A stretch of 64,000 nucleotides of DNA from Candidatus Latescibacterota bacterium. GTDB taxonomy: Bacteria; Latescibacterota; UBA2968. The DNA is taken from contig OZ242311.1 in assembly GCA_965207885.1 (NCBI GenBank), positions 32,001 through 96,000 on the forward strand, written 5' to 3'. Positions 9,966 to 54,194 of the stretch are shown here, piece by piece; the first letter of the stretch is position 1; each line of letters begins with the position of its first letter. Below the pieces are notes generated by a model that was given only the letters and a program-made list of their open reading frames with translations, was not told the origin of the DNA and did no database searches. Both the position numbers and the translations under genes were made by a program.

Positions 9966-11420
9966 TCAGCCCCCTTTGTTGTTCACCGTATTTATAATTA
10001 TTTTTTCAAAATTCTTAAAAAACGTATCACAGTGCTCTTTCATATCGTTGTTAAATTGGTGATGCTTGTCATTCTTGTCATTCTTGTCATTTGGTATTGG
10101 CAAAAATACCACATAAAAAGGAATTTCTTTGCCCTGCTGACGTAGAACATAGGGAGGAATCGGTCCACCTGATTTTCTCAACTGATCATCAAGCATTGGG
10201 TAAATAAATCCACATCCCTTAATAGGGCGATCATTTCCGTATTGCCCAATATAGGTATGCAACTGGAAAAGGTCCTCACGCTTTACGCCATATCGATGGT
10301 CGTATGTTTTGTATTTGACATCAAAAACATAAAAGCCACCATTACTTTCAAAAACTATATCTGGTTCAAGCCTGCGAGTGTAGTCTTCAAAGGAGCCTGT
10401 AGGAATCTCAGGTATTCTTTCGGACTTACTCAGTAACGGTATCCCACCTCTTATAAGTAGCTTTCGGATGAAATATTCAAACAGCATGGAGACATCAAAC
10501 AAGAAGGCACTGGTGTCTTTTTCTTCGCCAAAGCTCAATCCCCCACGTTGAATAACCCGCTTCGAAAGATCAATCAACACATTGTAATCGCTATAAAATG
10601 GATTAGAAAAAGGTCTCGTATTCAGAATTTCTTGTCTGGACCTTTTGAAACCCTGATTGGCAGCTACGAATGAATTGTAAATATTTCGAGACTCATAGCA
10701 AAAAGGATTGTCTTTAACCGTTTCGTAGGCTTCAATAAATAAAGAAACCGCTGGACTATTATAGCTGTGCTCTCTGTATGAACACAGATACTTGCCAGAT
10801 GTTTTGTTCTGAAAGAAATCAACCGGGTCTATATAGCCCCTTACCTTTGAGGTCCGTTCATCCCTGGTTATGTAGGCTTTGGGAAGTCCCAGCCGATAAG
10901 CGCGTTTGAATTTTATATTCCAGAGATACGCCAAAAGCCATTCATAATCATCAACATCGCTCTCGCCGCCAACATTTTTTAACTCAAGAAAACCATCTGC
11001 ATCCGCAATGATATACTGCAAAAAACGGTTTCCAAAACGCGAGCTTATTTTGAGTGCATAATCTCCTCTTTTTACAAAACCTATCAAATTGCCCGTGTCC
11101 AGGGTGAAATTCGTTGCGGTACCACTTACACTGATAAATCCATCATCTGTATTATGCTCATACTCTTCATTATTGAACAAAACGAGAGCATCTGATCGTT
11201 TATTTTTGTCTTGCAGGACCACTTCAATATCACGAGATATTGAAGTGATAAAATTCCAAATCTTGTCTTCATAATGTTCGGGCTTTGTCCGCCTACCAGG
11301 CCGCGCGTCAAATGTAATTCCTCCACCATCCAGCCGGTGATTTTGGACTTTTCGATCAGAAAATAGGTAATTTTGATTATCTACCAGATATCCATCTTTT
11401 ATGAAGTGGAATAAACGCAT
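9966..11420 (-). CDS. mcrC: McrC-family restriction endonuclease subunit
   Basis: LFEYFI, LEPDIVF..VFDVKYK PD-(D/E)xK motif, REDLFQL; directly downstream of McrB. Confidence 0.85.
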   Translation of the reverse strand: MRLFHFIKDGYLVDNQNYLFSDRKVQNHRLDGGGITFDARPGRRTKPEHYEDKIWNFITSISRDIEVVLQDKNKRSDALVLFNNEEYEHNTDDGFISVSGTATNFTLDTGNLIGFVKRGDYALKISSRFGNRFLQYIIADADGFLELKNVGGESDVDDYEWLLAYLWNIKFKRAYRLGLPKAYITRDERTSKVRGYIDPVDFFQNKTSGKYLCSYREHSYNSPAVSLFIEAYETVKDNPFCYESRNIYNSFVAANQGFKRSRQEILNTRPFSNPFYSDYNVLIDLSKRVIQRGGLSFGEEKDTSAFLFDVSMLFEYFIRKLLIRGGIPLLSKSERIPEIPTGSFEDYTRRLEPDIVFESNGGFYVFDVKYKTYDHRYGVKREDLFQLHTYIGQYGNDRPIKGCGFIYPMLDDQLRKSGGPIPPYVLRQQGKEIPFYVVFLPIPNDKNDKNDKHHQFNNDMKEHCDTFFKNFEKIIINTVNNKGG

Positions 11421-11430
11421 CGTTTATATT

Positions 11431-13110
11431 TTACACTCCAAATGCTTTTCCAAAAGCCCCTATCAATTCTTCGCCGCGACCCGTCCCTCGCAAATACTCC
11501 TGTAACAAGGGGTGAATGTGATCATCCCAAATTTGTTTACGGACCTCAGAGATTGACAAACTGGACGGATATTTCAGATTCATCAAATAAGCGTGACCGA
11601 TTTGATAATCAGATCCAAGCAACGCTTCGCTCTTGATTTGCTTATTCAGATTTTCAAGATTATCGGCTAATTCAGTCCATTTTCTATGATGCTCATTGAG
11701 ATGGTATTTAAGATGGTCTTTAAGTAATGTATAATCTGGCATTATCTCTTCCCACCTGAACCTTCTACGGAGAGCCAGATCAAAGCTTTCAACGCTCCGG
11801 TCAATGGTATTCATAGTTCCAATCAGGTAAACATTGGATGGAATAAAAAATTTGTATCCCTGACTCTTATCACGAAACATGCCTGTCTTCGGGTCATTCA
11901 AGTTGGCATATTGAGTTTTGATACATCCTTCTTTAACACCGCGATATTCCAGGCAATACATCAATTCACCAAATACACGGGATAGATCTGCTCTGTTGAT
12001 TTCATCAATGATAAAAAAGAATGGCGGCACCGCATCAGCTACGCGTCTGTCAGCTACACATACACGTCTGGAGGAGTCCTGACGTTTAAAAATATGCTCC
12101 CAACGGGAGGCTGGAAGTTTGCGTTCATACTGCTTAAGCTCTCCGATAGTGATTTCCTCCCAATCCTTATCAAGCCCAAGTTTATAGACATCAATTTCCC
12201 ATTTACCCGCTTTTCGGCAGAACTCTTTGAATACGCCATTTTGTAGCGTGAGTTGAGCCTCACCATTATGATCTAAGATGGGACGTAACCCTTCCATAAA
12301 ATCCTCATAACCAAATGAGGGATGAAACTGAACGACCTCTCTTTGTGTGTCAATTGTATAGTCGTCATTTTCTGGTGCAAACTTCTCTTTCCAAATATTA
12401 AAATACGATTCTGTTTGCTGACGGGCTAAATATGTTTTTCCAGTACCCGGAGGACCGTATTTGACAACTTGTTTATTCTGTTTAAATGGATTGGATAAAT
12501 TCTCGTATAAGTCCCAAACGAACATACTCAAGTAGAAGTCATCTGTTTCCTCATCTCTGAGCTCATCTTGAAATTCTTCTTTTAATTTGCAAAGCAAAAA
12601 TTGATTTTTTGTAAACCAGCCCTGGTCTTGATCCTGATAGTCAGGGATTATTTCTTCTCTAATTAACCAATTGAAGACCTCATTAAATCTATCGATATCA
12701 ACAGTCGTGGATACCTCACGAGTGCATGCTGCTGCCACTCGATTCACCAAAACAGGGTTTCTCCCTTTCCCTTGTTTTTCCCATGCATCCTGGAATTTTT
12801 TAAACGATTCTTGAGTTGGAGAAACGATAAACTCACTGAGAGTTGATAAGAAATCTTCATTTCTTATAAATGCCTGGAAATTGTCTTTGCTCAAGATAGA
12901 TTGACCATTGTTAGCAATATCATTATTTGGCTTTCGCAATAATCTATCAAGAAATTCTTGGTCGTTTTCATTCAGTTCTTGACCGTTTTGAATACGCCGT
13001 CGCATTTCTCCTACTTCATCACAAAATTCCTTATAGGAATCATGCCACCCTCGCACTATGTGTTTACGGTTATCAACAAGATCTTTATAAAGATTCTTAA
13101 GCCTGCTCAT
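11431..13110 (-). CDS. mcrB: McrB-family AAA+ GTPase
   Basis: GPPGTGKT, VQFHPSFGYEDF, IIDEINRA, GTMNTIDRS, ALRRRF, IGHAY. Confidence 0.92.
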   Translation of the reverse strand: MSRLKNLYKDLVDNRKHIVRGWHDSYKEFCDEVGEMRRRIQNGQELNENDQEFLDRLLRKPNNDIANNGQSILSKDNFQAFIRNEDFLSTLSEFIVSPTQESFKKFQDAWEKQGKGRNPVLVNRVAAACTREVSTTVDIDRFNEVFNWLIREEIIPDYQDQDQGWFTKNQFLLCKLKEEFQDELRDEETDDFYLSMFVWDLYENLSNPFKQNKQVVKYGPPGTGKTYLARQQTESYFNIWKEKFAPENDDYTIDTQREVVQFHPSFGYEDFMEGLRPILDHNGEAQLTLQNGVFKEFCRKAGKWEIDVYKLGLDKDWEEITIGELKQYERKLPASRWEHIFKRQDSSRRVCVADRRVADAVPPFFFIIDEINRADLSRVFGELMYCLEYRGVKEGCIKTQYANLNDPKTGMFRDKSQGYKFFIPSNVYLIGTMNTIDRSVESFDLALRRRFRWEEIMPDYTLLKDHLKYHLNEHHRKWTELADNLENLNKQIKSEALLGSDYQIGHAYLMNLKYPSSLSISEVRKQIWDDHIHPLLQEYLRGTGRGEELIGAFGKAFGV

Positions 13111-39375: not shown

Positions 39376-40098
39376 ATGAAAGTTGTAATCTACGGAAGCA
39401 ATGGCCAGTTGGGACCGCATGTGGTCAAAGCTCTGGAAGGACATGTGGATCTGCGCTTAACCGACCTGGAGCCATTTGACACCCCACACGAAATGATGAT
39501 CGTAGATGTATCAGACCCCGATGCGGTCGCGCGCGCGGCAGAGGGCATGGACGCAATCGTCAACCTATCGGTCTTGCGCCCCCACCGACAGATCGCCTTT
39601 GATGTCAACACCCTGGGATGCTACAACATCATGCGCGCAGCAGTTGCACACCGAATCCCGAGGGTCATCAACACAGGACCGCACTTCACCGTACAGGGCG
39701 CACCCTACGAGGCATTGGATTACAACATCGGTCCCGATGTCCCCCCCAAACCCAGCACAAACCTATACGCCCTATCCAAGGGCCTGGGCCAAGAAATCTG
39801 CCGAATCTTCACCACACAGAGCGATGTCTATGTACTGTGTTACTTATTCTACATCTTCTGCTATCACGACGACCTGTCAAGACCCGGCCTGAACCGCCCG
39901 TTCCTCGTAACCTGGCGCGATGCTTCAGCGGCATTCTTGCCGGGCCTGACCATCGACCTCAAAACCCTGCCATCGCAATGCGAAGTCTTCAACATCTTTG
40001 CAAACCGACCGCACCAGAAATTCTCAAACGAAAAAGCAAAGCGTATCTTGGGGTGGCAGCCGAAAGATGACCTGGCGCATACCTATACAAAAAAATAA
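39376..40098 (+). CDS. NAD-dependent epimerase/dehydratase (uronate-dehydrogenase-like)
   Basis: GSNGQLG and YALSK motifs. Confidence 0.75.
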   Translation: MKVVIYGSNGQLGPHVVKALEGHVDLRLTDLEPFDTPHEMMIVDVSDPDAVARAAEGMDAIVNLSVLRPHRQIAFDVNTLGCYNIMRAAVAHRIPRVINTGPHFTVQGAPYEALDYNIGPDVPPKPSTNLYALSKGLGQEICRIFTTQSDVYVLCYLFYIFCYHDDLSRPGLNRPFLVTWRDASAAFLPGLTIDLKTLPSQCEVFNIFANRPHQKFSNEKAKRILGWQPKDDLAHTYTKK

Positions 40099-40153
40099 AA
40101 AATTCGACTTTGAAACCCGAAAAGGGATCGAAAAGACCAGTACAGCATCTGCT

Positions 40154-40405
40154 ATGACCATACCTGCAATTCATCCGGGAGAACACCTCGCCGAAGAGTT
40201 GAGAGCACTCGACCTGAGCGCAACATCACTCGCACGACGGATTGAGGTACCCACCACCCGAATCACTGAAATCCTCAACGGACGACGTGCAATTAATGGC
40301 GATATGGCCCTGAGATTGGCTCATTTTTTTCATACCAGTGCAGAATTCTGGCTAAATTTGCAGAAACTCTATGAGTTGCGAATTGCTGAGGAGAAAGTCC
40401 GATGA
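40154..40405 (+). CDS. higA: HigA-family antitoxin, orphan
   Basis: IHPGEHL, HTH, ILNGRRAI..MALRL, FWLNLQ..YEL. Confidence 0.85.
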   Translation: MTIPAIHPGEHLAEELRALDLSATSLARRIEVPTTRITEILNGRRAINGDMALRLAHFFHTSAEFWLNLQKLYELRIAEEKVR

Positions 40406-40545
40406 TTACGTCGAGACACAGATTGCGAAAGCTGTTGCTGAAGTCAAGGGCAAATCATGAGACGCCTGTGCCATTTGTCGCCTATTACAAAGAATGCATG
40501 TGTAGCAACTTCTGCACTATCCACTAAAGCGAAGTAACTGCAACG

Positions 40546-41421
40546 ATGTTAATTAATGACCATAAAAAAATAATTAAAGTATATAAGGAAACATCTTTAT
40601 ATCTTCAAAACAATCCGAATCTTTCGGAGGAGCTTGAAATCTATATTTCCTCGTTTTATGAACTCAATGACCTGATTCCTCAGTACATTGACAGACTCGG
40701 ATCTGGCCACTTTTTTCCTTTTTTCGAGGCTTATACAGAACTCGAAAATTCAATTGAATTGAGCAAACAAGGCTTCTATCGCCATGCTCTTTTTTCTTTT
40801 AGAAACTCATTAGAGTTAGTAGTGATAGGTCTCTATTTTGATAGAGAGGATCAAGCGCACAAAGAAATTCGATCTTGGTTTACGTCTGATGATCCAACCC
40901 CACGTTTTAGTCGGATGCTCGATAAACTGCTTCAACTACCCAATTTTGCTATCTTCAGTGCTGAACGGCCGATGCGTGATGAAGTGAGACAACTTTATAG
41001 TGAACTTAGTGATTTTGTGCATATAAGAGGCTTTAGATATAGCTCCACAGGCCAAGGCAAAGTACATTTCAATAGTTTTAGTGAACAGGCTTTTTTGAGA
41101 AACATTTGTTTATTGAAGCAAATTGTACATTGTTGCATAAAACTGGTATTACTCAAGTACCCAATCGGTGTTCAAGAACTCCCACTATGGGAAAAATTTG
41201 GGTTCAATAAACCAATTGGAGGTTTTTTAGAATCACCTAACGTTGTCCTCCGTTTACTACCATCCTCTGATGTATGCCTTCTTCAAGAAATCAGTAACAA
41301 TGACTTGGAGGTACAAGAATTATCTGAAGAGATTCACAACATGCCTGATTTAACAGAGGAAGAAATAGATCTTCAACACCAAAGATATCGTCAAATGCAT
41401 AAAATCAGGGCGCATCATTGA
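40546..41421 (+). CDS. Hypothetical AT-rich protein, possibly HEPN-like
   Basis: 291-aa ORF; G.YRHA...RNSLE and LYSELSDFVH patterns. Confidence 0.6.
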   Translation: MLINDHKKIIKVYKETSLYLQNNPNLSEELEIYISSFYELNDLIPQYIDRLGSGHFFPFFEAYTELENSIELSKQGFYRHALFSFRNSLELVVIGLYFDREDQAHKEIRSWFTSDDPTPRFSRMLDKLLQLPNFAIFSAERPMRDEVRQLYSELSDFVHIRGFRYSSTGQGKVHFNSFSEQAFLRNICLLKQIVHCCIKLVLLKYPIGVQELPLWEKFGFNKPIGGFLESPNVVLRLLPSSDVCLLQEISNNDLEVQELSEEIHNMPDLTEEEIDLQHQRYRQMHKIRAHH

Positions 41422-41621
41422 ATTAAAGCGCGACTTGGCCTGGACCAGTTGCACCTCGTCCCCAATGCAGGTTCTTGCCGCTTATCCCCCGATGCCGTAA
41501 TTTGTTAAAAAGGCAGCAATTGCCTATAATACGGAAACTCGAGTTGATTGATAACGACGTGATTTGACTCGGTCCAAGATTGAGAATCCGATGATCGTAT
41601 TATTTATATAATAGTCCTATA

Positions 41622-43343
41622 GTGGAGACATACATGGCGCTTCATAGTGCTGAGCAAAACGTCGTGAACAAGCAGGGACTGAATACTCAAGTAGCGGATC
41701 CCACTTACCGCAAAGTTTTGCGGATCAATCCTCGCCGTCTCCTGGGGGCGTACTACACCCCTGACGCACTTGCAAGTATTTTGGCAACATGGGCACTCGC
41801 GCCTAGGAAGGGGAACGTCTTAGATCCGAGCTTTGGCGGGTGTGCGTTCCTTAACGCGGCAACTACGATTCTGGCTTCCAGGGGTATTTCAAAACCCGGT
41901 AAGCGGGTCTTCGGCGTTGATGTGGACCCGACGTGTATGGAGTACGTACGCAAGGATCAAAATCTCGTCGAGAAGAATTGCATTATTCGAGACTTTCTCA
42001 GCTTGTCTCCAAAAGATATACCCGGGGCACCGTTTCACGCCATAATCGGCAATCCTCCCTACGTGCGTCACCACTGGTTCAATGGAGCGACTCGAAAGGC
42101 AGGCAGGGTAGCCATGGCTGCCGCAGAAGTAGCACTTCCCGAAACTGCGAGTGCCTGGGCGTATTTTCTGATTCACACACTGAGCTTTATCGCAAAGAAC
42201 GGCCGACTCGCAATGCTTGTTCCAGAAGCGATCCTTCAGGCGGACTATGCCACTGTCGTCAGGGACTTGCTTACATCCCGTTTCGATCATGTCTGCCTGG
42301 TTCACATTCGTGACCGTCTGTTTGAGGGCACAGATGAAGCTGTAGTCGCAGTCGCTGCTTCGCAATATGGTGGTAAAAAAGGCGTCTTGCGCGTTGAAGC
42401 CGTCGAGCGGTCTGAGGACCTGGCAGCAGTCCTGAACACCCCAAAAGGCGGGCGTTCTACTTCCCATTTGACAACCCCAAAAGGACGCCGCATTGACTCA
42501 CAGACTGTCCAATTACTCGGTGAATTGGAGCAACATCCTGCGGTCCAAAAGATTTCCGATGTCGCAACCGTGAGTATTGGTTTAGTCACAGGCGCCAACA
42601 AACACTTCATCCGTAATGCCGAAAACTTGAAACAACTTGGTATTCCTCACGAGTCTTGTGTACGACTAATTTCTCGTACGCGATGGCTATCAGGGCTAGA
42701 TTTTACTGAAGAGGATCTCCAGAAACTCGTCGAAGCGGACCAACAAGCCATCCTGGTTCGGCCCACGCCAGAGTGCGAAAATACTCCCGGCATCAAGCAG
42801 TGGATTGACGAAGGGATTAAGGCCGGTATTCACGAACGATATAAATGCACCATACGCGATCCCTGGTTTCGTGTTGATCCAAAGCCTGTACCAGACGCCT
42901 TCGCTACATGTGCCCGTATGGGCGCTCCCTTGCTCGTTCTCAACCGGGCTGGTTGCCAATGTACCAACGCACTTCATGCGATGTACTTGCATTGTCGAAG
43001 CAATGCCTCTCTACCAGCCATCGCTATGGGGTTCCTCACAAGTGCCGTGAGTGTCTGGGCAGAACTCCACGGACGGCGGTACGGAGGAGGCGTCTTGAAG
43101 ATGGAACCCGGTACCCTGAATAGAACGCCGGTACCGATAGTTCAGGGCGCGGAAGCCGCCTTCGACGAACTGAATAAACTCATTCGAGATGGGCGAGAAA
43201 CCGAAGCAAGAAAACGGGCGGACGATCTCGTGCTCAGAGATCAATTGGGTTTGCCAAAGAAAGACATTAAGCGATTACAGCAGGCACACGCCCTGTTGAT
43301 GATCCAACGCCGCCCCACCAGGAATGGAACCGGACATGGCTAA
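41622..43343 (+). CDS. N6-adenine DNA methyltransferase (gamma class, Eco57I-like)
   Basis: GAYYTP, VLDPSFGGCAFL (motif I), GNPPY (motif IV), long C-terminal TRD. Confidence 0.9.
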   Translation: METYMALHSAEQNVVNKQGLNTQVADPTYRKVLRINPRRLLGAYYTPDALASILATWALAPRKGNVLDPSFGGCAFLNAATTILASRGISKPGKRVFGVDVDPTCMEYVRKDQNLVEKNCIIRDFLSLSPKDIPGAPFHAIIGNPPYVRHHWFNGATRKAGRVAMAAAEVALPETASAWAYFLIHTLSFIAKNGRLAMLVPEAILQADYATVVRDLLTSRFDHVCLVHIRDRLFEGTDEAVVAVAASQYGGKKGVLRVEAVERSEDLAAVLNTPKGGRSTSHLTTPKGRRIDSQTVQLLGELEQHPAVQKISDVATVSIGLVTGANKHFIRNAENLKQLGIPHESCVRLISRTRWLSGLDFTEEDLQKLVEADQQAILVRPTPECENTPGIKQWIDEGIKAGIHERYKCTIRDPWFRVDPKPVPDAFATCARMGAPLLVLNRAGCQCTNALHAMYLHCRSNASLPAIAMGFLTSAVSVWAELHGRRYGGGVLKMEPGTLNRTPVPIVQGAEAAFDELNKLIRDGRETEARKRADDLVLRDQLGLPKKDIKRLQQAHALLMIQRRPTRNGTGHG

Positions 43344-45660
43344 GTTCACTGTTGACACCCACTTGTTCCGAGAACTCGGAGAACTACTGGTCGGACGCGA
43401 CTCCACCGCCTTGATCGAACTGATCAAGAACGCCTACGATGCCGATGCGACCGAGGTCACTGTATATGGTGAGCGACTCGACAATCCAGAAGAGGGACAT
43501 ATCCTGGTAACGGACAACGGCGTGGGCATGAATCCGGAAGAGTTCACGAAAGGTTTTCTGAGAGTTGCTTCGCGTCTGAAGGAGCTGGGCGAGCGGCGAT
43601 CCATCTTATTCCAACGCCGTTACACTGGTGCGAAGGGAATTGGTCGGCTTGCTGCTCATAAGCTTGCGCGAAAACTCGAAATTGATAGCGTACCGCAGCT
43701 CTCTGAATTGGATAGGACTCGAGAAGCTCTGAACGCCACAATAGATTGGGACAAAATAGAGCAGTACGAAACCCTGGATGAACTTGACTCTACCGACGCG
43801 ATTCTTCTGGACACCAAGACAATAAGCAAGAACACTCGTTCAGGAACAGCACTTCTCCTATCGCGGTTGCGACGAGCCTGGACCAAGACTGAGCGTGCGA
43901 GGTTTTTAGCTGAGGTTCAATCGTTTGATCCCCCTTCGTTTTTGTGTGAGCCGCTCCCGCGATCGGTTATCGAAGAGCCACTGCTGTTCGACACGCCAAT
44001 TGTACGAGACCAGGGTTCCGATGCCGAGACCTCTTCATTCCGGGTAAACCTTGAAGGAGACTTTGCCGCAGGTGAAGACTACTGGGCGCTTGTTGCGGCA
44101 ACGTTTAACTGGATACTGGAGATTCGGACAGATCCCAATAATGGACACATAGGCTTTGGAATTGCTCCTACAAAAAAGAAGCTGAGGGAAAATCCCGAGA
44201 TTGAGGCATTCTATCATACCATACCTCACCCTACTCCCGAGCGTGGACCCCATTTTGACGCACGTATTCTGGTGAGAGAGGGCCATCAAAAATTTACTCG
44301 AGACCAACGGACGTGGGCAACGAACACCAGTGGCGTTCGAGTTTATCTGGAAGGGTTTCGCGTCCTACCGTATGGAGAACCAACAGACGATTGGCTCTCC
44401 ATTGACGCGGATTATGCGAGACGCCCCCGGCAGCTCGAAATGCTCAAGGATATTGGATTCGGCACAGAAGCTTCTGACCGCAATATTGGACTTGTTCGTG
44501 CGCCGAGCAACAATTACTTCGGCGCAGTTTTTCTTACCCAAAATCGCTGTCCTGAAATGCGACTTCTGGTGAATCGAGAAGGGTTTGTCCCAGAGGCGAG
44601 TTTCGAAACCCTGGAGCGGTTAGTCCGGATGGGAATAGACTTCCTGACTCGCGAGCGTGCAGCGGAGTCCTACGAGCGGCGTCAACAACGAAGGGAGGAT
44701 CGGCGTAAGGGTTCTACAAAGGAAGATACCCCGCAGAGTTCCACCGATATAAGTCATGTAACCAACGACAATATTGAAGTCCCTGAGTTTTTGGAGCGAA
44801 TTCAGGAAGCAACTCATTTAATGAAAAAAGCTGGTGAACATCTTACCGGCGATGACAAAGACGCGACTAATGCAGCTATGCAGAAGTTGGATGAGGTGAA
44901 AATACTCGCTGAAGATTTTGAAGATTTGATTTCAGAACACATGCTCTTATATGTCCTCGCTTCTGTGGGAACTCAGATGGCCGCGTTCGTACATGAGATC
45001 AACGTCTTACTCGCAGCATCACAAACCATTGAGCAGGTGCTTGAAGAGGTGCTTGCTGAGGGTGGTCTATCGCTTGATGAAAGGCGCAGGTTCAGGCGTA
45101 CCTTGAACCGCGCGACAGAGCTCAAACACAGTCTGGAACGTCAAGCCTCTTACTTGATGGACGTCGTGAGTGTTGATGCGCGCCGCCGCCGGTCTCGCCA
45201 GCGTTTATGTGAACGTTTCGATGCCGCAGTTCGTCTCGTACAGCATCAAGCAGAACGCCGAAGTATCAAAATTGACAATCATATTCCACCCGAATTGAGG
45301 TCTCCTCCCCCGATGTTTCCCGCTGAGATTACAGCGATATTCGCCAATCTCCTGACAAATGCGGTTAAAGCCGCTGGAGAGGATGGACATATCCTTGCTT
45401 CAGCATCCAGTGGAAATGATCAGGTTCGGATTCGCATCCAGAACACCGGCACTGCCGTCCAACTCAATGACGCCGAGCGCTGGTTCAAACCCTTCCAATC
45501 AACAACATCTGAAGTAAACCCCGTGTTGGGCCAGGGGATGGGGCTGGGACTGACTATTACACGGAACCTGTTGGATAACTATGGAGCAGTTGTGAAATTC
45601 ATCCAGCCGGATAGCGCATTTGCAACTGCAGTCGAAATAGCCTTGCCAAGTAGGAGTTAG
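43336..45660 (+). CDS. MORC/MutL-like GHKL ATPase fused to a histidine kinase
   Basis: N-terminal ELIKNAYDA, DNGVGM, GAKGIGR; C-terminal FVHEIN H-box, NLLTNAVKA, GMGLGL. Confidence 0.85.
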   Translation: MAKFTVDTHLFRELGELLVGRDSTALIELIKNAYDADATEVTVYGERLDNPEEGHILVTDNGVGMNPEEFTKGFLRVASRLKELGERRSILFQRRYTGAKGIGRLAAHKLARKLEIDSVPQLSELDRTREALNATIDWDKIEQYETLDELDSTDAILLDTKTISKNTRSGTALLLSRLRRAWTKTERARFLAEVQSFDPPSFLCEPLPRSVIEEPLLFDTPIVRDQGSDAETSSFRVNLEGDFAAGEDYWALVAATFNWILEIRTDPNNGHIGFGIAPTKKKLRENPEIEAFYHTIPHPTPERGPHFDARILVREGHQKFTRDQRTWATNTSGVRVYLEGFRVLPYGEPTDDWLSIDADYARRPRQLEMLKDIGFGTEASDRNIGLVRAPSNNYFGAVFLTQNRCPEMRLLVNREGFVPEASFETLERLVRMGIDFLTRERAAESYERRQQRREDRRKGSTKEDTPQSSTDISHVTNDNIEVPEFLERIQEATHLMKKAGEHLTGDDKDATNAAMQKLDEVKILAEDFEDLISEHMLLYVLASVGTQMAAFVHEINVLLAASQTIEQVLEEVLAEGGLSLDERRRFRRTLNRATELKHSLERQASYLMDVVSVDARRRRSRQRLCERFDAAVRLVQHQAERRSIKIDNHIPPELRSPPPMFPAEITAIFANLLTNAVKAAGEDGHILASASSGNDQVRIRIQNTGTAVQLNDAERWFKPFQSTTSEVNPVLGQGMGLGLTITRNLLDNYGAVVKFIQPDSAFATAVEIALPSRS

Positions 45661-45662
45661 CC

Positions 45663-46808
45663 TTGAGTATGAATAATATCAATAAGCCGTCCATTCTTAT
45701 CATTGACGATAACCCTGACCTCGTCAATATAGAGTTGGGAGACCGCGCAACGACTTATGTAATTCATCCTCAGGATGTAGAAAGATCGGACCTGAATAAT
45801 GCTGATCTGGTTCTGGTGGACTATGCGCTGGAATACTGGTCAGAACGGGATAATCTATCGATCATTTCACTCCAGCCAGCAACCGGAATGGCTCTTGCGG
45901 TTGTGCTACGGGAGCAAGTAGATCAAAATGAAAAAGACAAATTAACAGCATTTGCGCTATATACAGCTCGTCTCAGAGATATTAAGGGGCGATTTGCCCC
46001 TGCGACTGCTCAACACGTTCTTGCGCGCCTGAACAATCTGGAATGGATATTCCCAAAGACGAATCCTGATAGCTACTCAAAGACGAATCCTGATAGCTAT
46101 AACCAGATACTCCTTCTTGCGGATGCTGTCCGGGAGCTTCCAGGCCAATGGTCGAAAGATTCGGATTCAAGGGTGCAACAACTTCTCGATATGGATAAGG
46201 ACAACGAATCGTTTGAGCGCTGCTGGCGTGATGTTAAAGATTGCCGGGTGCCAATTGAAGAATTGTCTGAGGGAGAACATAGCATCCTTTTTATTCGATG
46301 GTTGCTTCATCAAGTATTGCCGTATCCTTGCTTTCTGTGGGCGGAGCACTGGGTTGCAGCACGCCTTGGGATTTCTATTGATGCCCTGCGTGAGGTACTG
46401 GAGGGAGATAGCGATCTGGCGAAAGACTTGGAGTCCATGCGCTATTCGGGGATTCTCGCGGATTTTTTGGGAGATAGGTGGTGGCGTGGTGCTATCGAGG
46501 ACTACGCCTGGAATTTAGTAGAAGGACACACGGCTAATGTACAACATTTACGAGATGCCTTGGCCGAGCGTGCCGGAATGAAACTGAAGTCAATTGACGT
46601 CAACCCCGCTGTGGTTTGTGTGGATAAAAATTGGCAGCCCATCGACAAATTCCTATCGCCAATGGATACCATAACCCTGCATCCTGACCACTGGCCCGCG
46701 TTTGCCGACCCAGCCTGGATGGACATCGAGACTGTGCGAAATGAAGCGACTCTGTTGCCATTGGTGGATCCCCTTGACCAATACCTCATCGAGAATGATG
46801 AAGAATAG
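45663..46808 (+). CDS. Response-regulator receiver domain plus unknown C-terminal domain
   Basis: ILIIDD, LVLVDY, LYT, FPK receiver motifs. Confidence 0.75.
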   Translation: MSMNNINKPSILIIDDNPDLVNIELGDRATTYVIHPQDVERSDLNNADLVLVDYALEYWSERDNLSIISLQPATGMALAVVLREQVDQNEKDKLTAFALYTARLRDIKGRFAPATAQHVLARLNNLEWIFPKTNPDSYSKTNPDSYNQILLLADAVRELPGQWSKDSDSRVQQLLDMDKDNESFERCWRDVKDCRVPIEELSEGEHSILFIRWLLHQVLPYPCFLWAEHWVAARLGISIDALREVLEGDSDLAKDLESMRYSGILADFLGDRWWRGAIEDYAWNLVEGHTANVQHLRDALAERAGMKLKSIDVNPAVVCVDKNWQPIDKFLSPMDTITLHPDHWPAFADPAWMDIETVRNEATLLPLVDPLDQYLIENDEE

Positions 46809-46818
46809 GACGGCAAGA

Positions 46819-47547
46819 ATGGCTGGGTTTCGCTTTCATTTTTCTGAACTGATCCAAGAGGCCGAAGTGATGCAAACCTTGTCAAAGAGGTTCCTTGATC
46901 CGAATAGGATGTGGGTTTTCTACAGGTTCTTGAGCGCCCTCCGCAGTATTGATGGAAAACCTATAAAAAATGTTTATCCTCTGCAACTTCATTGCCTTCA
47001 CACAAGACCAAGCGATCAGTACGACAGGAAAGCAGGGAAAAAGATATATGCGGTTATTTCAGGAAAGTGGCAGTTGCGACCATTAGAGAAGCACGAGATA
47101 GAATTCTGCGGGATCGCTTCGACGAGGATTGAGTTGTACGCTTCGGATGCTCCTGAGACACGCTTAGCAATGTGGAGCCTGGAACTGGGTGCTGAAGACA
47201 GTCCTGGCTGTTATGTTCACGCTCATATTCTCGGGGACCCCGTCGATCCTCGATTCCCGAAATCAGTTTCTATTCCCAGATTGCCCAGCCTCTTCGTCAC
47301 TCCGATGAGTGCTGTAGAGTTCGTCCTCGGCGAACTCTTCCAAGATAGGTGGTCCAAGGTGACCGACAGCAATGCTAAAAAAGTGACTCGTTGGCGTGAT
47401 ACCCAAAAAAGGTGGCTTCAGAGTCTGTTTTCATGGTACAATGACCAAATGGAGAACGCGAGTTCCTCTCCGTGGATGGCATTAAAGAAGGCAAAGCCAC
47501 CAGAAGACGGCATGTTTCTCCAAAAATCCAGAAGACGGAGATCGTGA
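46819..47547 (+). CDS. Hypothetical protein with HxH motif, fourth gene of the module
   Basis: ATG at 46819, 10 nt after the receiver stop; GCYVHAHI motif. Confidence 0.65.
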   Translation: MAGFRFHFSELIQEAEVMQTLSKRFLDPNRMWVFYRFLSALRSIDGKPIKNVYPLQLHCLHTRPSDQYDRKAGKKIYAVISGKWQLRPLEKHEIEFCGIASTRIELYASDAPETRLAMWSLELGAEDSPGCYVHAHILGDPVDPRFPKSVSIPRLPSLFVTPMSAVEFVLGELFQDRWSKVTDSNAKKVTRWRDTQKRWLQSLFSWYNDQMENASSSPWMALKKAKPPEDGMFLQKSRRRRS

Positions 47548-47580
47548 AAATTTAGTTAGAGCCACATCGTGTCGTGCGCA

Positions 47581-47619
47581 GACCAATCAAAATCGCTGAC
47601 TGATTGGTCTTATTTTTTT
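47581..47619 (+). terminator. Intrinsic terminator
   Basis: GACCAATCA...TGATTGGTC followed by a T tract. Confidence 0.7.
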
Positions 47620-47735
47620 GTCTAATTGTCTTTATACTCAAAAACACCATTGCAAAGCCCTGTTTTCACGCTTAAATTGCAGATATTCGTACCATTATTA
47701 TTATGGCCACAACTCCTGCCACAAGGAGAACAAAC

Positions 47736-52119: not shown

Positions 52120-52176
52120 ACAGGACCTGGTCTGGGGATCGAACTCGACGAAAGCGGTCGTCAATAAACATCGTGC
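52120..52176 (+). pseudogene. Direct repeat C: 3'-end fragment of an enolase-family gene, continuing at 53459-53474; second copy 55489-55560
   Basis: ACAGGACCTGGTCTGGG..TCGAACTCGACGAA...CATCGTGC|ATAAGGTTGCGTAAAA versus CACCGCGCGTAAGGTTGCGTAAAA. Confidence 0.85.
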
Positions 52177-52217
52177 GTGACTACTCCCAACGCTAAAGCA
52201 GTTGGGCTTCTTGGCGG

Positions 52218-53342
52218 TCAATCCGCCTGACGTTGTAGCCCCAACGTCAATATGTTTATCGCAGCATTGTGGTCTCTGTCCGTCTTATAGCCACACGCCT
52301 TGCAATGATGCACACGCTCAGAAAGTGCTTTCTTCTCTCTATGTCCGCATGCAGAGCAATCTTGTGACGTATATTCAGGATCAACGGCCTTGAATCCAAT
52401 ACCAGCCTCTTCCGCTTTGTATTTGAGACAGTGCCGAAACAGGGACCATGCTACGTCTGCTATTGATTTAGCCAATCGTCTGTTCTTTTGCATCTCTTTC
52501 ACGTCCAATTTCTCTACGGCTATGAATCCGTGACGATTGACCATTTTTCTTGATTCTTGATGAGCAAAGTTATGTCGTTTATTACGGATACGCTCATGCA
52601 CTCTACCAATGACTTTACGACGCTTTTCTCTTACGGCGTCGGTCTTGGGTCTTTTTTTCACCGCGTCCCATTTGCGCTGTGTTTTGGCAAGAGATTTCTC
52701 TTCTTTCCTAAAGAATCTCTGATTCTCTATTTTCTGTCCGTCACTGGTCACAGCAAAGGAATTGAGACCCACGTCAATGCCAACAGCAGAGCCAGCGGTT
52801 GGTTTCTTCTCTTTTTCGCCAATATCGCAAGAGATAGACACAAACCACTTGCCTGTTGCTGTGCGTGTGATTGTGCAAGACTTAGGGATACCCTCAAGTG
52901 ACCTGTGCTGGACAATGCGAATGCAACCAATACTGCCCAATCGCAAGCCCTTGTCGTCCAATCGACATCCATTGGCAAACTGAGGATAGGTGATAGAATC
53001 ATAGCGATGCTCATTCTTGTATCTGGGAAAGCCAGCTTTCTCGCCTGTCTTTGACTTCCCTTTGAGACGCCGAAAGAAACCTTTGAATGCCAAATCTACT
53101 CTTGCTGACACTTGTTGCAACACCTGACTATACACTTGCTTGAAAGCGGCGTGTTGTTGTTTTAACACTGGTATTGTTTTGGTCTGGTCATATTCAGAGA
53201 GAGACTTATTCTCATTTTTCCATGCTTGTATTCTGGCACAGAGTAGTTGATTATAGAGAATACGACATTCGTCAATATGCGCCAGCAAGATTTGTTCTTG
53301 CTTTTTGGTCGGACGCAATCTGTATTTGAATGATTTAACCAT
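52218..53342 (-). CDS. tnpB: RNA-guided endonuclease TnpB
   Basis: HTH N-terminus, GIDVG, IAVEKL, CSACG..CKACG zinc finger, DRDHNAAINI. Confidence 0.95.
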   Translation of the reverse strand: MVKSFKYRLRPTKKQEQILLAHIDECRILYNQLLCARIQAWKNENKSLSEYDQTKTIPVLKQQHAAFKQVYSQVLQQVSARVDLAFKGFFRRLKGKSKTGEKAGFPRYKNEHRYDSITYPQFANGCRLDDKGLRLGSIGCIRIVQHRSLEGIPKSCTITRTATGKWFVSISCDIGEKEKKPTAGSAVGIDVGLNSFAVTSDGQKIENQRFFRKEEKSLAKTQRKWDAVKKRPKTDAVREKRRKVIGRVHERIRNKRHNFAHQESRKMVNRHGFIAVEKLDVKEMQKNRRLAKSIADVAWSLFRHCLKYKAEEAGIGFKAVDPEYTSQDCSACGHREKKALSERVHHCKACGYKTDRDHNAAINILTLGLQRQAD

Positions 53343-53348
53343 AATAAA

Positions 53349-53377
53349 AATATATACTTATATGCATTTTTTGTCAA
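53349..53377 (-). promoter_or_regulatory. Sigma70 promoter of tnpB, probably leaderless
   Basis: TTGACA-N17-TATATT ending 6 nt before the ATG. Confidence 0.6.
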
Positions 53378-53464
53378 GATTTTTATCGCTAAAGCAATAC
53401 CAAAATCACAAGCCCTCATATCCCAACGCTAAAGCTGTTGGGTTTTACGGGCTGTTTGATAAGG

Positions 53465-53529: not shown

Positions 53530-53784
53530 ATGAATAAAATGATAAAAACAAAAGTAACAGCGCAAGGGGTTTTGATCCCTCGGCAGTTGTTAGAAGGAAT
53601 AGAGGAAGTAGAAATAAAAAAAGAAAATGATGTGATTACAATTATGCCGACGGGACAGATGAACGCCTGCGGTAGTAGTACACAGCTTGATCCCATTTGG
53701 AATCTGGGTGAAAATCCAGTCGAATGTGGTATTTCAGATGCTTCCGAACAGCATGACAAATATTTGTATGACACATCTTCATGA
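53530..53784 (+). CDS. AbrB/MazE-like antitoxin
   Basis: KVTAQGVLIPR swapped-hairpin pattern, DASEQHDKYLY; ATGA overlap with the PIN toxin. Confidence 0.75.
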   Translation: MNKMIKTKVTAQGVLIPRQLLEGIEEVEIKKENDVITIMPTGQMNACGSSTQLDPIWNLGENPVECGISDASEQHDKYLYDTSS

Positions 53785-54194
53785 ACACAAATATATTCTT
53801 TCTTGATACAGGTTATCTCATTGCCCTTGAAGCTTCTAACGACAAAAATCATACACGCGCAAAAAATCATTGGCGAACTTTTATTCGCACACGCCCGTCT
53901 TTAGTGACCACCTCCTTTGTTTTCGATGAGGTGGTCACTTTTTTTAATAGTCGAAATCGACACGAAAAGGCCGTTGAAGTTGGCTCGCACCTCTTGAATA
54001 GTCCTTCTGTTCAGCTAATCCAGGTGGATGACGCCCTTTTTCGCAAAGGTTGGGAATATTTCGAGCAACATTCAGATAAGCTCTACTCTTTGACAGATTG
54101 CATTTCATTTGTTGTTATGCAGCAACGGAAAATTCAGACTGCCCTAACTTTTGATAGGCATTTTACTCAAGCCAATTTTTTGACCATTCCCTAA
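53781..54194 (+). CDS. vapC: PIN-domain VapC toxin
   Basis: FLDTG, VFDE, SLTDCISF, TFDRHF. Confidence 0.9.
   Translation: MNTNIFFLDTGYLIALEASNDKNHTRAKNHWRTFIRTRPSLVTTSFVFDEVVTFFNSRNRHEKAVEVGSHLLNSPSVQLIQVDDALFRKGWEYFEQHSDKLYSLTDCISFVVMQQRKIQTALTFDRHFTQANFLTIP

Follow-up and report, generated by a model that had tools for sequence, protein, structure and literature searches.

A four-gene adenine methylase, MORC-type kinase and receiver cassette from Latescibacterota, conserved across bacterial phyla and probably involved in phage defence

Ambrosia (AbrR-AbrA-AbrB-AbrC-AbrD), from Pseudomonas aeruginosa, is a validated anti-phage system described in a 2025 preprint (bioRxiv 10.1101/2025.09.30.679545). 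According to the available portion of that preprint, its parts are an XRE protein, an N6 methylase, a kinase/HSP90 ATPase, a REC-wHTH protein and an HNH protein, every one of them required; the receiver mutation D60A abolishes defence, expression rises on infection, and phage grown on cells expressing the AbrA methylase stayed sensitive to the system. Soluble kinases with the architecture HATPase_c_3-DHp-HATPase_c, derived from paraMORCs and found together with atypical receivers beside methylases, had been reported in 2021 (PMC8011034, in the portion available). The paper on the paraMORC ATPases themselves (PMC2292703) contains neither the word “receiver” nor the word “two-component”. The initial annotation of the DNA studied here had suspected that similar kinase fusions were already catalogued, and the available text of the 2021 article and of the Ambrosia preprint confirms this suspicion.

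Here we analyze a locus in a 64,000-nucleotide stretch of DNA from a Candidatus Latescibacterota bacterium (the window), which we consider to be probably a mobile cassette against phage, Ambrosia-like, of the MORC-kinase/receiver/methylase class but with a different effector. This reading is built on what we observed: the four genes are conserved together, their catalytic motifs are intact, selection on them is purifying, the insertion slot varies and defence genes are frequent neighbours.

Organization and conservation of the locus

The locus comprises four co-directional genes and two candidate expression signals:

41502..41530, forward strand: candidate sigma-70-like promoter TTGTTA-17-TATAAT, 5' of the methylase gene, with 10 of 12 consensus matches
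41622-43343, forward strand: gene 1, methylase ORF (probable start ATG 41634)
43336-45660, forward strand: gene 2, GHKL-S5/histidine-kinase fusion
45663-46808, forward strand: gene 3, receiver plus output region (start TTG 45663 or ATG 45669)
46819-47547, forward strand: gene 4, putative effector of 242 aa
47580..47619, forward strand: terminator-like hairpin (47580-47610; stem of 10 bp, loop of 11 nt), followed by a T run

With the starts of the ORF calls, genes 1 and 2 overlap by 8 nt, 2 nt separate genes 2 and 3, and 10 nt separate genes 3 and 4, in agreement with the tight packing and the junction lengths initially annotated. Translation of gene 1 probably begins at ATG 41634 and not at 41622, because a GGAG lies just upstream of this ATG and two close relatives have the same start. 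The promoter candidate is the best of the region, yet the regional total of such candidates (8) is at chance level (9.1). The single terminator claimed for the operon stands in part: the hairpin and its T run are present, but with -12.6 kcal/mol (z -1.69) the hairpin is only modestly stronger than shuffled sequences, 11 of 200 of which fold as well, and a consensus scan of the region did not pick it up.

The arrangement itself is far beyond chance because the same gene order recurs across phyla. A gene-order comparison across genomes, which the initial annotation had called for, was carried out by scanning species-representative genomes with a receiver alignment. It yielded 54 loci that, according to their record titles, belong to Latescibacterota, Poribacteria, Gemmatimonadota, Acidobacteriota, Chloroflexota, Myxococcota, Planctomycetota, Actinomycetota, Cyanobacteria and Proteobacteria. 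The kinase accompanies the receiver at 52 of the 54, gene 4 at 51 and the methylase at 45, so the four-gene module is conserved and widely transferred across phyla; missing partners are explained by contig ends, by IS-broken or decayed copies and by two orphan receivers, and two Haliangium copies have no methylase in view. A search of metagenomes anchored on gene 4 gave 67 loci, reduced to 50 after removal of 16 duplicates and one locus without readable ORF. Where enough flank was present, 36 of 37 had the receiver next to gene 4, and the kinase was present in 28 of 29 and a methylase in 17 of 17. There is no fifth conserved gene: the next commonest neighbour cluster occurs in just 6 of the 54 loci, and a fifth component, be it the HigA-like gene or the 291-aa gene described below or any other neighbour, was rejected for that reason.

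All four genes are under purifying selection. Compared with six close loci, dN/dS is 0.13-0.19 for the methylase, 0.10-0.23 for the kinase and 0.14-0.40 for the receiver, and it is highest for gene 4 (0.33-0.52, with one value saturated). Broken or partial copies also occur, namely the IS-split L008, L013/L023 and L041. The orphan receivers L025 and L028 (about 10001-11110) stand without kinase, gene 4 and methylase, the latter among type I restriction-modification (R-M) and PDC genes.

The kinase, its receiver and the methylase

In gene 2, Pfam places HATPase_c_3 at residues 24-147 and HATPase_c at residues 665-771, and residues 3-187 best match restriction enzymes of the BbrUII/HgiDII family (E 8e-22). 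Its GHKL-S5 module is homologous to HEF_HK-type modules (HH 99.5%, 22% identity over 430 residues), from which the S5 label is taken; with an N-terminal GHKL domain of intact motifs followed by S5, gene 2 carries a paraMORC-type module. No transmembrane segment was seen by eye. The motifs initially annotated in the locus (ELIKNAYDA, DNGVGM, GAKGIGR, FVHEIN, N-box, QNTG, G2 and NPPY) are all present, and all 46 full-length homologues compared keep the GHKL motifs, H553 of the DHp domain, N675 and, in G1, N703 without exception; in a second set of homologues (n=29), G1 reads NTG in 27 and NNG in one, with no call in one. The odd G1 is no sign of a dead kinase, because VanS, which lacks the second Gly as well, and ThkA also carry Asn at the Asp position (10.1101/2022.12.12.520123, available portion). 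The candidate explanation of a kinase dead because its G1 reads QNTG was rejected on that ground and because the Asn is invariant in homologues. The same portion of that source mentions one kinase with an Asp-to-Asn G1 change that prefers GTP, which VanS does not. Leaving nucleotide preference aside, the kinase of gene 2 is probably active.

Residues 6-159 of the 379-aa gene 3 product fold as a REC domain (VIA Z 11.9, rmsd 2.6, 119 aligned). The receiver residues D13, D14, D51, T99 and K130 (numbered from ATG 45669) are present, D13, D14, D51 and K130 being invariant in 49 of 49 homologues and position 99 being T or S in all 49. The claim of intact receiver residues (DD, acceptor D, T, K) is thus borne out and, with H553 and D51 both invariant, so is that of a His-to-Asp relay, which appears intact by sequence. 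The output region (~220 aa) contains a segment that looks HTH-like. This segment, at about 206-294, is common to sister cassettes, with HH probabilities of 75-95% for four of the nine receivers tested, and the structure model shows a helical segment at 225-283. Sub-threshold library matches were to DUF4423 (13 of 101 homologues) and EutK_C, both of which we take to be HTH-type families; searches of the Atlas and of PDB sequences with the output region returned no matches, and structural comparisons of gene 3 gave lists taken up by REC domains.

Gene 1 codes for an N6-adenine DNA methyltransferase of the M.Eco57I type, with PF22837, PF02384 and PF07669 above the Pfam cut-off and a match to the PADLOC model MTase_II (E 5e-93); as initially annotated, no recognisable restriction endonuclease lies beside it. 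The NPP[YF] motif occurs in 41 of 42 methylase rows, the remaining row being truncated, and an NPP[YF] adenine methylase is the partner in 41 of 41 complete loci, where it lies upstream (28), downstream (10) or downstream and convergent on the opposite strand (3). This linkage outlasts rearrangement and replacement, since there are three positions and the displaced methylases are just 23-43% identical to gene 1 in their catalytic domain.

A comparison of the closest loci revealed a mosaic kinase. Its ends are 85-94% identical, while residues 240-620 split into two alleles. The first is common to the window and L004 (86-91% identical). The second occurs in L001-L003; over residues 240-440 and 535-620 its identity is 61-69% with the first and 80-85% with the otherwise more distant L005. 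Despite the two kinase alleles, the methylase stays 88-91% identical throughout these loci, and the receivers do not divide according to the DHp allele. To judge from these alignments, the mosaic is due to recombination in the part of the protein expected to sense. Domain-wise identity correlations (0.65-0.84 between proteins) singled out no domain as tracking the methylase recognition domain.

These alleles matter for a reading in terms of conventional R-M logic, in which the methylase would protect self, the MORC clamp would find unmethylated sites and the relay would license cutting by gene 4. Such logic would fit the resemblance of the gene 2 N-terminus to BbrUII/HgiDII-family enzymes and the M.Eco57I type of the methylase, and action of this kind was put forward for paraMORCs. 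However, the methylase and its putative reader do not vary together, because the S5-linker-DHp alleles diverge (~63% identity) while the methylase does not, and AbrA methylation failed to protect phage in Ambrosia (bioRxiv 10.1101/2025.09.30.679545, available portion). We hold this reading to be unlikely, and the Ambrosia result leaves unsupported the earlier claim that the ATPase senses unmethylated DNA to tell self from non-self.

The putative effector and the insertion slot

In an anti-phage cassette, as we favour, gene 4 would be the effector. It has 516 homologous clusters at 50% identity, an alpha+beta structure model (pLDDT 85) and an invariant core of P129, G130, H134, R154 and P156. 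All of 145 diverse homologues keep H134, while position 136 is Q in 115 of them and H in 16. The “HxH” signature annotated at first is therefore a feature of the window copy, HxQ being the common form, and a conserved HxH site was rejected. No Pfam family was found for any of 104 homologues, and gene 4 has no PADLOC match either. HNH families matched none of these 104, and gene 4 shows neither conserved Cys pairs nor an H-N-H pattern. Foldseek searches of PDB and BFVD with the model gave no match at E <= 0.001, and VIA gave a best Z of 3.8, with UBC/RWD-fold rows (Z 3.1-3.2) scoring level with unrelated ones. No relative of gene 3 or of gene 4 turned up in viral contigs.

The sister cassettes, whose kinases are more distant and whose methylases are of the Eco57I type, code for proteins of 220-290 aa with the pattern H-x-D ... 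H-x-Q ... P-R-I. Their pooled profile matches gene 4 with an HH probability of 73% and a score of 40.5, compared with at most 19.8 in 15 shuffles; adding two members lowers the probability, to 41% for gene 4 and 3% for DUF2290. Gene 4 is likely related, as these profiles suggest, to the effector-slot proteins of the sister cassettes. Kinship with DUF2290 itself is a weak lead: a 15-sequence DUF2290 profile scores 30.0 against gene 4 (probability 21%), with controls at 15.4 or less in 15 column shuffles and at 16.5-20.1 for three unrelated profiles, and one Atlas row at 0.86 for gene 4 carries DUF2290 on 15% of its members. An earlier comparison with five sequences had scored within the shuffled range, and DUF2290 (PF10053) is above the Pfam cut-off in none of the 104 homologues and has no match in G000. 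Plasmids add further variation. A Rhizobium plasmid cassette has a distant gene 4 with the motif HPPFHMQ, and a Clavibacter plasmid copy (L100 10493-11107) has methylase, kinase and receiver followed by an unrelated protein, PIN-like by eye and without a Pfam PIN match, making an RNase-effector variant possible. The position 3' of the receiver is thus taken by an HNH protein in Ambrosia, by this PIN-like protein in the plasmid copy and by motif-sharing proteins in the sister cassettes.

Flank comparison placed the cassette in a variable insertion slot bounded by an NAD-epimerase gene and a beta-propeller gene:

40087..47722: variable insertion slot with the cassette, a HigA-like HTH gene and a 291-aa gene
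40154-40405, forward strand: HigA-like HTH_3 gene, upstream of which no toxin gene was seen; not a conserved part of the cassette
40546-41421, forward strand: 291-aa gene of low GC; not a conserved part of the cassette

The HigA-like gene lies 1.2 kb from the cassette and is also present in the slot of G076, a genome without cassette. The 291-aa gene has no significant Pfam, NCBIfam or PADLOC family; it accompanies the cassette whole in L087 and partially in L001 and is absent from the other loci. The cassette occurs in 5 of 21 genus genomes and 6 of 168 phylum genomes. Among the 16 genus genomes that have both flanks, the slot is empty in nine, holds the cassette in five and, in two, other genes of defence type, an AAA_21 ATPase and its 187-aa partner. 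In these nine, and in a second copy within G000, the empty slot joins the flanks with 3-6 nt between them. The AAA_21 ATPase (PADLOC PDC-M07A-like) recurs in the slot with or without the cassette (L094 629-2442, L095 457-2258, L003 4226-5581).

Defence genes are frequent neighbours. For 29 loci, we compared the two closest genes on either side with PADLOC models (E <= 1e-8): 32 of 105 flanking proteins matched, versus 6 of 48 other genes of the window, one of the six being a real defence gene; this control consists of one window, and related loci do not count as independent. We judged that 15 of these 29 loci have a neighbour clearly of defence type (type I R-M, retron, Septu-, Hma- or Druantia-like genes). 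By contrast, a Pfam scan alone detected a defence-type neighbour at just 2 of 16 more distant loci. Seven loci (duplicate, short, broken or close kin) and two without usable flank were left out of these surveys. The defence role claimed in the initial annotation is likely, given the conserved cassette, the variable slot and the defence-type neighbours. Patchy spread over phyla and plasmids, and a slot shared with toxin-antitoxin-like genes, would also suit a selfish addiction cassette, in which methylation and the relay would restrain gene 4 as a toxin that kills cells once the element is lost, with any phage defence secondary; but broken and partial copies and orphan receivers persist, and a two-ATPase relay is an elaborate device for that purpose, which makes this reading quite improbable. 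Least probable of all is a non-defence regulatory module, in which the soluble kinase would sense nucleotide pools or DNA state and regulate the methylase, with gene 4 as accessory subunit: NTP sensing by the GHKL domain at the N-terminus was suggested in PMC8011034 (available portion) and the invariant G1 Asn permits altered nucleotide use, but gene 4 is the fastest evolving, its position is held by nucleases in relatives, and the slot and neighbours are of defence type.

The window contains other mobile or defence-type features. McrB-like AAA_5 and McrC genes (9966-13110, reverse strand) form a low-GC patch (39%) that constitutes a second defence insertion and is not part of the segments that recur elsewhere in the assembly. 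These second copies, 95-98.5% identical, account for most of the window (G000 C1, about 5.83-5.86 Mb and 6.155-6.203 Mb) and include the empty version of the cassette slot; they reflect either a true duplication or an assembly that merges two strains. A 1.2-kb element with a TnpB/Cas12f-like gene (374 aa; 52174-53378, reverse strand) has about ten further genome copies at 77-95%, and a PIN-domain (VapC-like) gene (53781-54194, forward strand) sits in another low-GC slot.

Proposed mechanism and comparison with known systems

In the anti-phage cassette that we favour, the soluble GHKL-S5 clamp of gene 2 would engage DNA or an infection-linked cue and thereby switch on the fused kinase, and a phosphoryl group would pass from H553 to D51 of gene 3. 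Phosphorylated gene 3 would then act via its HTH-like output; the likeliest way, which has been proposed for AbrC, would be to induce or release the effector. Gene 4 would be this effector, probably a nucleic-acid-attacking enzyme working via the invariant H134 and R154. The methylase would be required, supplying a DNA mark or a sequence read-out and not necessarily plain host protection. A more far-reaching version, which we put forward only as a tentative speculation, would have gene 4 found an unrecognised effector superfamily (a His/Arg-dependent nuclease or other toxin of unassigned fold) together with the sister effector-slot proteins and DUF2290, switched on by the MORC clamp; the fused kinase, with its invariant G1 Asn, may use GTP, and the S5-linker-DHp block would serve as a specificity cassette that is swapped without regard to the methylase. 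Should gene 4 be the effector, what it does would also account for DUF2290, which is part of a validated anti-phage system.

Detocs reportedly bases anti-phage defence on a kinase/receiver relay, as the present cassette would; it is said to have no methylase or MORC module and to carry its effectors fused to the receiver. More distant arrangements in our own data include another MORC-kinase clade (L183-L185, L188-L190 and L194), with a ~433-aa partner without Pfam family and a C5 methylase adjoining in five of seven loci, convergent in four, as well as a haloarchaeal plasmid (L101 6674-10055) with a distant MORC-kinase/receiver pair, an N6 methylase in divergent orientation and, lying between the two, a gene for a YgjP-like peptidase. 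In the anti-phage system of a helicase and DUF2290 (PMC9122126, available portion), the DUF2290 motif HPxSH...RIP...P..P..FI.F aligns with PGCxFHxQ...PRLP...TP...EF of gene 4; the partner there is a helicase, whereas here it is a relay and a methylase, and the profile match is weak (21%). The paraMORC ATPases of R-M loci, including the BbrUII/HgiDII family, likewise have an N-terminal GHKL and S5 beside a methylase, but carry a C-terminal nuclease or TIR where gene 2 has a histidine kinase (PMC2292703, available portion). The HEF_HK (PF19191)/Response_reg_2 (PF19192) pairs share a soluble GHKL, DHp and CA kinase followed by an atypical receiver and are methylase-linked. Their usual methylase is a C5-cytosine enzyme, in contrast to the adenine methylase and fixed fourth gene found here, and their receivers have 540-600 aa, compared with 379 aa for gene 3, with output parts of no detected similarity. 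Gene 2 and three homologues do not match PF19191, which two control proteins match at E 1e-27 or better; PF19192 is hit by 9 of 101 receiver homologues (best E 0.062), none in G000.

Ambrosia is the closest in order, with a methylase, a kinase/HSP90-like ATPase, a receiver, there with a DNA-binding-like output, and a small effector following one another as in the window (preprint, available portion). The cassette matches three of its five components, as judged by domain type and gene order and not by comparison with Abr sequences. The effector is an HNH protein there, whereas gene 4 has no HNH match, and Ambrosia is mainly found in Gammaproteobacteria (available portion of the preprint), whereas the present clade spans many phyla. 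Among 93 small ORFs upstream of 38 loci (at most the three longest of each locus, within 750 nt), there was no XRE controller, two of the ORFs having HTH_17. Examination of 17 regions in 401 genomes of another class found sister cassettes, none of them with adenine methylase plus HNH. Literature searches, mostly outside subscription journals, found no publication on this exact clade. On this evidence, we would say that the cassette works like Ambrosia, by likeness of domain type and gene order, and do not file it as a member. The MORC-kinase/receiver/methylase kind is already known, from 2021 and from Ambrosia in 2025; the present clade lacks Ambrosia's XRE and HNH and falls outside the 2021 Pfam models. 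Among phosphorelays linked to DNA methylation, a single member is validated; this clade represents a minimal four-gene version of the class, present in many phyla. With neither controller nor known nuclease, it offers a clean test of the cue perceived by the MORC-kinase and of the reason why the methylase is retained.
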